Shown here one piece after another: positions 1,192-29,340 of a stretch of DNA of 45,610 bases. The DNA comes from a virus. Each line of letters starts with the position of its first letter. Within the stretch, counting starts at the first letter, position 1. The stretch covers positions 1 to 45,610 of IMG/VR virus record IMGVR_UViG_2853968202_000001. The stretch is one strand, 5' to 3'. Under the pieces are notes generated by a model. That model saw only the letters and a program-made list of their open reading frames with translations. It did no database searches and was not told the DNA's origin. A program made the translations under genes and the position numbers.

Positions 1192-1283
1192 TGGATAACT
1201 CCCCCGACGGTTTCGACCACGGCTACCCCGTTAAGACGGTCAAACTTTCCGCAGAACAGATCCTCGAGCAGTATCGCGTCTGA
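1191..1283 (+). CDS. Small hypothetical protein (30 aa), possibly translationally coupled (TAATG overlap)
   Basis: Hand translation gives MDNSPDGFDHGYPVKTVKLSAEQILEQYRV. The ATG overlaps the upstream TAA. Below the ORF-track length cutoff. Confidence 0.25.
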   Translation: MDNSPDGFDHGYPVKTVKLSAEQILEQYRV

Positions 1284-1335
1284 CGTAGCTTTAAGCTCTC
1301 CGAGATCTTTGCTCTCTTTGAGGCAGGAGAGCTAT

Positions 1336-2109
1336 ATGAGAATCGGAGTTACCAATCAGAAGGGAGGAGCCGGCAAGACGACAACCACGCTGAACGTGGC
1401 CGGCGCGTTGAACCAACTCGGGAACGATGTCCTCGTGATCGACTTGGATCCACAGGGCCACGCCACCGAAGGACTCGGATGCGAGGATCTGTACGACGAC
1501 CGCGAGCGCGACTCGTTGTTCGATGTACTCCCCGACCTGGACCGAATGGACGACCTTGACCAACTGATCATCGAGCACGATGAGGTCGATGCCGTCCCGT
1601 CGCACGAGAAGATGATTAATGCCGAGGACGCGCTCGCGAACGTGATGAAACGCGAGGAGCGCCTCGACATGCTCCTCGAGGAGACTGACCAAGACTACGA
1701 CTACGTGCTGGTCGACTGCCCGCCGAACCTCGGCGTGCTCACGGACAACGCGATCGTCGCGACGGGAAACGTGCTGATCCCGGCACAGGCGAAGACAACG
1801 TCGATCCGTGCAATCAAACTCCTGTTCAAGCAACTCCGCTCGATCGAGTCCGCGTTCGGCGATGTCGACGAACTCGCGCTGGTCGCGAACGAGGTCGAGG
1901 TCGACGGCGAGGCCGACGAAATGATGGACTGGTTCAGAAATGTCTTTGAGGACAAAGACGGGTGCGAGGTTTTTGAGGTCAGAAAGCGAGTCGCCTTGCA
2001 GCGCGCCTGGAACAACGGCGTCTCGATCTTCGAACACGAGGAAGAGTCTGATATGGAAGATGTGTATCTCGATGTCGCCCGGCACCTGGAGGCGTTCGGC
2101 GATGAGTGA
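1336..2109 (+). CDS. parA: ParA/Soj-family partition ATPase
   Basis: Deviant Walker A KGGAGKTTT in MRIGVTNQKGGAGKTTTTLNVAGAL, followed by DLDPQGHAT and VLVDCPPNLG. Internal ATG at 1336 is preceded by AGGAGAG. The track ORF begins at 1309. Confidence 0.9.
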   Translation: MRIGVTNQKGGAGKTTTTLNVAGALNQLGNDVLVIDLDPQGHATEGLGCEDLYDDRERDSLFDVLPDLDRMDDLDQLIIEHDEVDAVPSHEKMINAEDALANVMKREERLDMLLEETDQDYDYVLVDCPPNLGVLTDNAIVATGNVLIPAQAKTTSIRAIKLLFKQLRSIESAFGDVDELALVANEVEVDGEADEMMDWFRNVFEDKDGCEVFEVRKRVALQRAWNNGVSIFEHEEESDMEDVYLDVARHLEAFGDE

Positions 2110-28302: not shown

Positions 28303-28563
28303 TCAGTCCGTGAGTCCGCCGACGATCTGGTCCGCTACGGGGATCACCGCCCCCATCGCCACCTCGAACGATCCTGGTTCTGGCTCCTCGCCACGAGCCG
28401 CAACCAAGACACCAGCGATTGCACCAATTGCCAGCGTCCGACTAAATTTGCGTGGCTTAAATTCCTTCTCGTCGTTTAAGACTGCGTGAGCGTATCCCGA
28501 AACGGCATACGCAGCGCCCAAGACGACGTACAGTGCAAGCATCACCGCCTTATTTTCTGCCAT
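28303..28563 (-). CDS. Small membrane protein (86 aa), first gene after the 28.6-29.1 kb gap
   Basis: ATG start. AVMLALYVVLGAAYAV and LAIGAIAGVLVA. Confidence 0.6.
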   Translation of the reverse strand: MAENKAVMLALYVVLGAAYAVSGYAHAVLNDEKEFKPRKFSRTLAIGAIAGVLVAARGEEPEPGSFEVAMGAVIPVADQIVGGLTD

Positions 28564-28973
28564 GATTGCATTGAAAGTCTTCGAACCGCAGTACGGAAAG
28601 GTGGGGAGGCGGACTGGCTGATGAGGATCAGTTCGCGGCAGGAGGTCGCTCGAGAGAGATCCTCGCTTTCGCTCGGGCTCTCAAACGAACCGGCAGATCC
28701 TGAGTTGTCCCCAGGGCACTGCCGGCCTACCCGCACCGCGGACTCGCTGACTCGTAGCGCGTAGCGCTTAGACCGAAGAAGATGAACAATCGAAGAACTC
28801 CTGTCCAGGACACGACGTCCGAACGCTTGCCGACGGCAGCGTCACGTACCGTGTCAGTCGTGTACCAGCCCTCGAGTACAACGAGAAACTCACAGCGCTC
28901 TATCAGAGCGCTCGGGTATCCTCAGCCAGCTATGCTCGAGCGCAACACGAGCAGGGAACTGACTTCACCGGAA

Positions 28974-29029
28974 ACCGGAGCCGGGAGTCGAACCCGTTTG
29001 ACCTGGCCCATTGGTGCCAGTACTCCGGC
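28974..29029 (-). ncRNA. tRNA-like element: acceptor stem + D-arm + T-arm, with no anticodon arm (56 nt)
   Basis: Minus strand reads GCCGGAG-TA-CTGG-CACCAATGGG-CCAG-GTCAA-ACGGG-TTCGACT-CCCGG-CTCCGGT. It has a 7-bp acceptor stem (one G-U), a 4-bp D stem with GGG in the loop, and a consensus TTCGANT T-loop. One A-G mismatch closes the T stem. Confidence 0.4.
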
Positions 29030-29109
29030 GACGTCCGCAATCCCCTCGGGCATCGAACGATAGGATACGATCGGTTAGCCGAGCCACGGCGCCGTCATCG
29101 GAGAGGATG

Positions 29110-29340
29110 TTATAGCTGCGACCACTCTGGGAGCGTCGTCTGTCCTTTCACGACCGGGCGCTCTGGTTCAGCTGGCTCCTCTTCGGGATCGGTCGTCGTC
29201 GGGACGTTCTCGGCTCGTTCCTCGCCGACATCCTCCGGGTCGGTCGCGTAGACGACGTCGTCGGCCTCGTCCTCGAGCGATGGCCGCTCGGTAATCGACT
29301 GGTAGGTGGCGTCGAGCGGGTCGCCATCGTAGGAGTGCAT
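29110..29340 (-). CDS. Small very acidic hypothetical protein (76 aa)
   Basis: ATG start shares one base with the upstream stop. Acidic composition. Confidence 0.6.
   Translation of the reverse strand: MHSYDGDPLDATYQSITERPSLEDEADDVVYATDPEDVGEERAENVPTTTDPEEEPAEPERPVVKGQTTLPEWSQL

Follow-up and report, generated by a model that had tools for sequence, protein, structure and literature searches.

A mini-tRNA without an anticodon arm opens a conserved structured RNA region in tailed viruses of haloarchaea and may act as a viral t-element

We analyzed a 45,610-nucleotide (nt) stretch of viral DNA, here called the window, which covers positions 1 to 45,610 of IMG/VR virus record IMGVR_UViG_2853968202_000001, and found that a 56-nt element on its minus strand, shaped like a transfer RNA (tRNA), belongs to a group of mini-tRNAs in which structure is conserved and sequence is not. 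With moderate confidence we read this element as a viral t-element, i.e., a tRNA-like substrate that would be cut by RNase P and tRNase Z, the tRNase Z cut making the 5' end of the RNA encoded downstream. An initial annotation of this DNA had drawn attention to the element, which proved to be real, but had missed that a conserved region of structured RNA, roughly 0.5 kb long, starts with it.

Fold and conservation of the mini-tRNA

The element lies in a 546-bp non-coding gap flanked by minus-strand open reading frames (ORFs) at 29110-29340 and 28303-28563, and its parts are arranged as follows:

28974-29029, minus strand: anticodon-less mini-tRNA (t-element-like), as recognized from its RNAfold structure, its relatives and covariance model R2
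29029-29023, minus strand: 5' strand of the acceptor helix
29020-29003, minus strand: D-like hairpin
28997-28981, minus strand: T arm
28980-28974, minus strand: 3' strand of the acceptor helix

The minus-strand sequence from 29029 to 28974 reads as initially annotated, and its minimum free energy (MFE) structure, computed with RNAfold, consists of a closing 8-bp acceptor-like helix that includes a G-U pair, a D-like hairpin and a T hairpin. All three arms of the earlier description are retained, with one correction: the outermost pair of the T stem is an A.G mismatch, such that this stem has four base pairs rather than five, and the acceptor helix gains one U-G pair to reach eight. The fold has an energy of -28.1 kcal/mol (z = -3.2), is equalled by two of 200 shuffled sequences, and accounts for 66% of the ensemble. 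As had been noted, there is no anticodon stem-loop anywhere in the 56 nt: ARAGORN called no tRNA in the window and none among 11 related elements, and a search of the element against Rfam returned only a sub-threshold match to tRNA-Sec (14.9 bits, E 9.6) whose alignment skips the anticodon region. Without a cloverleaf that includes an anticodon arm, the element is not a functional tRNA gene.

Such folds are rare in the host genome, a 4.96-Mb assembly of 11 contigs in which the window is the whole of contig C2. This genome contains 83 T-loop motifs, 31 of them inside tRNAs called by ARAGORN, and only four of the 52 motifs outside called tRNAs are accompanied by an acceptor-like helix of at least 7 bp. 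These four are the window element, whose 8-bp helix is the longest, an intron-bearing tRNA overlooked by ARAGORN, and two further host sites. A relaxed scan of the window produced no second convincing copy, and shuffled windows yielded about 0.17 such matches per 45 kb, so that the chance expectation for the fold is low and the earlier judgment that it was unlikely to have arisen by chance is borne out.

To this single example we could add a series of relatives. A DNA search that covered 152 genomes of the host's family located the gap in a chromosome of the same genus (511 nt at 91% identity) and fragments of it in eight further genomes; additional loci from IMG/VR, metagenomes and named genomes came from two pattern searches and a covariance model, R1. 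The pattern scan of metagenomes returned only near-identical copies of two variants that were already known. Three of the relatives have been deposited as 49-58-kb Natrinema plasmids with nothing annotated beneath the match. In all, we compared 13 distinct loci, which hold about nine independent sequence variants of the mini-tRNA.

Across these loci the build of the element is constant. A T loop of the GGTTCGAnTCC type is present in 11 of the 12 loci first found, and again in the thirteenth (L099), and the combination of an acceptor helix, one variable hairpin and a T arm, with no anticodon arm, is common to 12 elements from viruses and proviruses; 10 of 11 elements adopt the same three-helix topology as their MFE structure. 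The acceptor helices themselves are lineage-specific, beginning with GCCGGAG in the window and with CCCCGG, CCGACG, CCGGCA, CGCCGT or AGCCCG in others. When acceptor strands are paired with their own partners, the mean duplex energy is -12.1 kcal/mol, as against -6.2 kcal/mol with strands from other lineages, and the true arrangement gave the best energy of the 720 possible permutations among representatives of six lineages.

A second covariance model, R2, in which only the acceptor and T helices were specified, recovers 12 elements, including that of L099 (53 bits), which was absent from the training set. In the R2 alignment, 80.7% of cells are paired, compared with 67% after shuffling and 40-53% for partners shifted out of register; changes occur on both sides in eight of the 12 pairs, and none of 500 shuffles reached the observed covariation score. 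The compensatory pairs for which the initial annotation had looked to related viruses are thus present, and what the mini-tRNA conserves is its structure rather than its sequence.

The internal hairpin ranges from 4 to 10 bp, with a loop and a position that also differ among loci, and the stacked acceptor and T helices mostly add up to 11-12 bp. Every variant retains a GG in the unpaired stretch 5' of the T arm. In the elbow of a tRNA such a GG contacts the T loop, and by analogy the GG and T loop of the mini-tRNA could form an elbow as well. RNase P measures an acceptor/T stack of this length (PMC4919913), and the freedom of the internal hairpin is what would be expected if only the stack and the elbow matter.

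Spacing on the 3' side is tightly constrained. The distance from the T-loop motif to a downstream GAUGA (GGUGA in the window) is 14-15 nt in all 11 loci measured, and the 3' end of the acceptor is separated by 1-4 nt from the CC that opens a kink-turn-like motif. CCA, which would inhibit tRNase Z, is absent from the trailers of all elements. In one relative, L008, R2 also detected a second mini-tRNA (1954-2014, minus strand) that is followed after 13 nt by a GAUGAC motif, the same motif that marks the 5' edge of the conserved block in other loci, which suggests duplication of a unit made up of mini-tRNA and kink-turn.

The structured RNA block downstream

The 13 loci share a modular block with one order of parts: an upstream C-box-like motif, the mini-tRNA, a second C-box-like motif, hairpins, a CUGAGG motif, a variable hairpin, a conserved helix, a variable spacer of 73-190 nt, and a three-way junction of 150 nt that ends in a conserved tail. 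The protein genes flanking this block vary among loci, and the RNA block therefore moves as a unit. In the window its features, other than the mini-tRNA, are these:

29088-29101, minus strand: upstream copy of the C-box-like motif (CCGATGACGG...), which marks where the conserved non-coding block starts on its 5' side; found ahead of the mini-tRNA throughout the loci
28959-28971, minus strand: 5' strand of the kink-turn-like motif (CC, 3-nt bulge, GA, one unpaired nucleotide, helix); invariant except for the bulge in 13 loci
28934-28952, minus strand: conserved hairpin within the kink-turn-like helix, from the locus comparison
28920-28929, minus strand: 3' strand of the kink-turn-like motif (helix strand, then UGA-GG, including a D-box-like CUGA); in 13 of 13 loci
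28894-28912, minus strand: 8-bp hairpin, the variable hairpin of module B; arms in relatives L004 and L008 differ yet are complementary
28865-28888, minus strand: conserved 3' end of module B, a UUCUCG...CGAGGG-CUGG helix, from the locus comparison
28589-28775, minus strand: module C, an RNA that folds into a three-way junction of an outer helix and a pair of long hairpins, of which one has a GAAA loop, from RNAalifold and covariance model R1
28591-28606, minus strand: pyrimidine-rich motif (CCCCACC..TTTC.GTAC), after module C in the window

The kink-turn-like motif begins 2 nt past the mini-tRNA in the window. Its two strands lie 35-95 nt apart across the 13 loci, all of which fit the sequence pattern of a kink-turn (helix, 3-nt bulge, tandem G.A/A.G pairs, second helix), with a first helix of only 2-3 bp. 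The helix adjoining the G.A pairs covaries, with a mean energy of -7.6 kcal/mol for a strand with its own partner versus -4.8 kcal/mol across loci, a value as low being reached in two of 20,000 permutations. In relatives of the L014 type, the kink-turn-like helix encloses three hairpins and so forms a four-way junction, and in the window lineage it encloses one. From these sequence features, the segment at 28920-28971 (minus strand) is a candidate binding site for L7Ae. The upstream C-box-like motif overlaps the stop codon of the preceding ORF in some loci and, in our pairing model, may combine with CCCGAGGGG near 29045 into a second, weaker kink-turn-like fold. The 8-bp hairpin that the initial annotation had placed downstream of the element is indeed present, and corresponds to the hairpin of module B within this conserved region.

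Module C is the best-supported structure of the block. Its core helices span 28741-28632 and are followed by the conserved tail; an alignment of 12 distinct homologues supports 43 base pairs, with 92% of cells paired and compensatory changes in 17 of the 43 pairs, which none of 500 shuffles matched. It occurs as a single copy in nine of 151 host-family genomes searched, always in a virus-like context, as well as in IMG/VR and metagenome contigs. Rfam, queried with the block modules of nine loci at both gathering and E-value thresholds, returned no family.

Several known RNA classes were considered for the block and set aside. The RNA following the element has a C-like box (matching at five of seven positions) and a D box, but C' and D' boxes are missing and the segments that could have served as guides are base-paired to one another; it is therefore neither a canonical box C/D guide small RNA (sRNA) nor a methylation guide. 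A hammerhead core can be dismissed since CCGAUGA...UGAGG does not fit CUGAUGA...GAAA and Rfam gives no match, and there was likewise no Rfam match to suggest a homologue of RNase P RNA or of signal recognition particle RNA.

In some relatives the 3' side of the block is occupied by true tRNAs. A tRNA-Trp (L007:1408-1483, minus strand) abuts the 3' end of module C in one locus, and a tRNA-Phe followed by a tRNA-Tyr (L038:1441-1513 and 1244-1316, minus strand) occupies this position in another, where the tRNA-Phe abuts. L005, L006, L014 and L016 have a hairpin that opens with GAGTCG, as do the tRNAs of L007 and L038. The pyrimidine-rich motif, ending in TTTC(A/C)GTAC, precedes the mini-tRNA in L005, L014 and L016 and turns up again ahead of the next gene or tRNA, at distances that vary too much for a single promoter box. 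We also rejected as a promoter the TTTCAGTAC-type motif, because it lies anywhere from 13 to 40 nt away from the element and is thus not one fixed TATA box.

Host mini-tRNAs, predicted processing and alternatives

Elements of the same kind are present in the host's own chromosome:

G000:C1:911796-911870: host tRNA-like fold in a 5S leader, with a T loop as in the viral element; such folds also lie upstream of the 5S genes at C4:308 and C1:313
G000:C4:855833-855885, plus strand: host mini-tRNA with an acceptor helix, a 4-bp hairpin and a T arm, without an anticodon arm

The folds with a GGTTCGATTCC loop end 3 nt before all three host 5S ribosomal RNA (rRNA) genes examined. RNAfold recovers an acceptor-like closing helix in one of the two 5S-leader sequence types, and R2 gives a weak match to the host 5S leader (15 bits, E 0.57). 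Hoelzle and colleagues (2008 and 2012, as cited in PMC4326828 and PMC3296008) reportedly described tRNA-like structures in Haloferax volcanii, both ahead of 5S rRNA and at other sites. In Haloferax the 5' end of 5S rRNA is made by tRNase Z at a tRNA-like structure (PMC3296008), and by analogy we regard the 5S-leader folds as the host counterpart of the Haloferax t-element. The host mini-tRNA on contig C4 shares its T arm with the viral element over 15 nt and sits in a gap of ~90 nt between two co-oriented protein ORFs, where it is a possible punctuation mark in a host messenger RNA. The host genome encodes RNase P RNA and tRNase Z, the latter scoring above the curated cut-off.

RNase P and tRNase Z both act on t-elements, and an RNA placed between two t-elements is released with exact ends (PMC4326828, PMC4946936). 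We favor the viral t-element reading because the succession of a tRNA-shaped unit, 1-4 nt, a kink-turn-led RNA and sometimes a tRNA is the natural form of such cassettes. Under this model, the element would retain just those parts on which tRNA end processing in the host depends, namely the acceptor/T stack, the T loop and a loop containing GG. It would be transcribed on the minus strand, probably within a longer transcript leaving the upstream small-gene operon. RNase P would cut on the 5' side of the element, near 29030, and so end the upstream message; tRNase Z would cut one nucleotide past the 3' acceptor strand, near 28973/28972. The latter cut would leave the 5' end of a structured non-coding RNA (ncRNA) whose C/D-box-like kink-turn begins 0-3 nt later and is followed by the hairpins and the three-way junction. 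In some relatives, RNase P acting at the directly following true tRNA would set the 3' end of this ncRNA.

The viral element resembles haloarchaeal t-elements in folding into an acceptor stem and T arm, in lying a few nucleotides 5' of a structured RNA, and in belonging to a host with RNase P and tRNase Z; it differs in being encoded by a virus, in preceding a kink-turn-bearing ncRNA rather than 5S rRNA, and in that its cleavage is predicted. A second parallel comes from several archaea in which C/D box sRNAs directly follow tRNA genes and an RNase Z cut has been proposed to form their 5' ends (PMC3491384, PMC7994747). There, as in the window, a tRNA-shaped unit is followed by an RNA that opens with a C-box or kink-turn, but the upstream unit of the window is no functional tRNA, and the downstream RNA is 380-515 nt in length and has neither C'/D' boxes nor free guide segments. 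In plant mitochondria and other organelles, as described by the tRNA punctuation model, tRNA-like folds in long transcripts mark the boundaries between genes for RNase P and RNase Z. The term t-element is also used in PMC11658184. Plant mitochondrial t-elements belong to another domain of life and have no sequence relation to the window, which contains a single element at the border between the early/middle and the late genes.

Several points weigh against t-element processing. That the element is transcribed and cut on both sides, and that the RNAs so released have a function, is inferred, and no promoter or terminator was assignable for the element. The acceptor helix of L005 is poor, and the covariation counts from the R2 alignment overstate independence, the alignment being fitted to the model and the sequences being related. 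Moreover, the unvarying distance between the mini-tRNA and the kink-turn-like motif is also compatible with a rigid RNA of two domains that is never cut. In this main alternative, which we consider unlikely, the mini-tRNA is a domain of one large viral ncRNA that recruits tRNA-binding factors or caps or stabilizes the 5' end, as might be expected from the co-inheritance of all modules in 11-12 loci and from the analogous tRNA-like domains of tmRNA, YrlA and plant-virus RNAs. The locus L031 speaks for the t-element reading, since it has the kink-turn-like motif and modules B and C but no mini-tRNA, which is therefore a separable accessory; L031 also has a truncated tRNA downstream and may be a decaying copy, which tempers the argument. 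The free variation of the acceptor sequence and internal hairpin, and the similarly built mini-tRNAs of the host, which occupy known or likely processing sites, are likewise at odds with an uncleaved domain, and the haloarchaeal t-elements that are known are cleaved (PMC4326828).

The tRNA mimic was one of three interpretations offered by the initial annotation, and in the form of a processing signal it fits the covarying fold, the invariable absence of the anticodon arm, the fixed spacing and the host mini-tRNAs before 5S genes. A different version of mimicry, in which the released mini-tRNA of ~56 nt is itself the product, serving as a decoy or competitor for a tRNA-recognizing protein of host or virus (for instance a CCA-adding or tRNA-modifying enzyme, or a defence that targets tRNAs), with the downstream RNA unrelated, strikes us as improbable. 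Every variant does have the elbow-forming GG loop and T loop, and many viruses carry tRNA-related RNAs; yet neither the acceptor sequence, nor the discriminator, nor the internal hairpin is conserved, so that no specific identity is maintained, the sole tightly conserved relation is that to the downstream motif, and no candidate partner protein is encoded adjacent to the element.

The two other interpretations of the initial annotation fared worse. That the element is a functionless chance fold, or a viral tRNA gene that has lost its anticodon arm and is decaying, could draw on the real tRNA genes and fragments found in the same RNA region of relatives, but is very improbable: acceptor pairing is kept through differing sequences, and the same arm-less build recurs in about nine variants with compensatory changes, an invariant T loop and a fixed position relative to the next motif, beyond a low chance expectation. 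Scarcely tenable is the idea of an attachment (att) site, whether a viral attP core or what is left of an integration into a host tRNA gene, of the kind shown for the tRNA-like gene of halovirus HF2. The HF1/HF2 group does supply a precedent in the form of a halovirus tRNA-like attP that tRNA finders score poorly (PMC8707807, PMC7230728), and a close relative of the window virus is integrated in a chromosome; the HF2 element, however, matches the 3' part of a host tRNA and adjoins an integrase, whereas matches of the window element to the host genome never exceed 16 nt, none lies in a tRNA gene, and no integrase was found among the flanking ORFs tested. An att core must also keep its tRNA sequence, and here acceptor sequences differ between loci while their pairing is kept. 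The integrated relative, G036, is the 91%-identical sequence, found in the chromosome of another species in a circular permutation that differs from that of the window. Its element is intact and sits 1.3 kb or more within the similar region, with both viral flanks contiguous, showing that its att site is not at the element; a comparison of the two stretches flanking the provirus ends revealed neither a tRNA gene nor a direct repeat of 14 nt or more.

Genomic setting and wider meaning

The ends of the window overlap by exactly 92 bp (1-92 and 45519-45610), and the contig is thus a closed molecule of 45,518 bp, which represents an episomal virus genome or else an assembly with terminal redundancy. 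Its minus strand encodes genes of a tailed virus, among them the small and large terminase subunits (TerS and TerL), portal, major capsid protein and tape measure protein, along with an Orc1/Cdc6 replication protein, and its small terminase shares about 40% identity with the small terminases of PhiCh1, phiH and ChaoS9. The named carriers of relatives, as identified from pattern matches and plasmid records, are Natrinema, Natronolimnohabitans, Halostagnicola and Natrarchaeobius, and because these belong to the Natrialbaceae, we assign the host to this family on sequence grounds.

Upstream of the gap, from 29110, runs a chain of small genes, and downstream, from 28563, come small ORFs, HNH, TerS and TerL, all on the minus strand. 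The ORFs inside the 546-bp gap had looked spurious in the initial annotation, and we could likewise discard them as coding sequences: they have no Pfam match, and the 13 loci share no open frame in strand or position. Searches of 50,697 phage records with the gap (blastn) and with the upstream ORF (tblastn) returned no match, nor did a protein-based search of IMG/VR with the upstream ORF, and PhiCh1, with its distantly related small terminase, has no comparable non-coding gap upstream of its HNH and TerS genes. Elsewhere in the host genome, G000:C9:56590-57850 contains seven copies, in both orientations, of a box of ~22 nt (ACACACCACGTTTCCGGTGAA) that resembles haloarchaeal origin-recognition boxes. 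A 12-nt identity between these boxes and the 3' border of the element is not kept in relatives and is probably due to chance.

More tentatively, we propose that the mini-tRNA and the downstream tRNAs of relatives bracket a 380-515-nt, multi-domain ncRNA family of Natrialbaceae tailed viruses and virus-like plasmids, which would be excised by host tRNA-processing enzymes and act as a ribonucleoprotein at the start of the packaging/late block. The notion of a ribonucleoprotein for late expression or packaging is speculative, and arises because the RNA heads the packaging and late genes and carries a probable L7Ae site. Bacterial prophages carry large ornate RNAs, ROOL and GOLLD, which often lie by tRNA genes and for which Rfam models exist. 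The whole locus offers an analogy of context, being a large multi-domain RNA in viruses and proviruses, often beside tRNA genes; it differs in that the window RNA is archaeal-viral, smaller, and matched by no Rfam model. If the proposal is correct, the bracketed RNA would be the archaeal-virus counterpart of these prophage RNAs.

Haloarchaeal 5S rRNA, the archaeal and plant genes that join tRNAs to sRNAs or small nucleolar RNAs, and organelles all provide examples of tRNA end processing that delimits other RNAs, and our literature search found no description of such processing for archaeal viruses. The analysis also exposes a conserved and strongly covarying RNA, without an Rfam family, that heads the late and packaging genes of haloarchaeal viruses persisting as 45-58-kb plasmids or as proviruses. 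The cassettes of mini-tRNA, RNA and tRNA mirror the synthetic t-element cassettes by which RNAs with exact ends are produced in Haloferax. If the viral t-element reading holds, archaeal tailed viruses would borrow the tRNA end-processing enzymes of their hosts both to punctuate their transcripts and to make a defined non-coding RNA.

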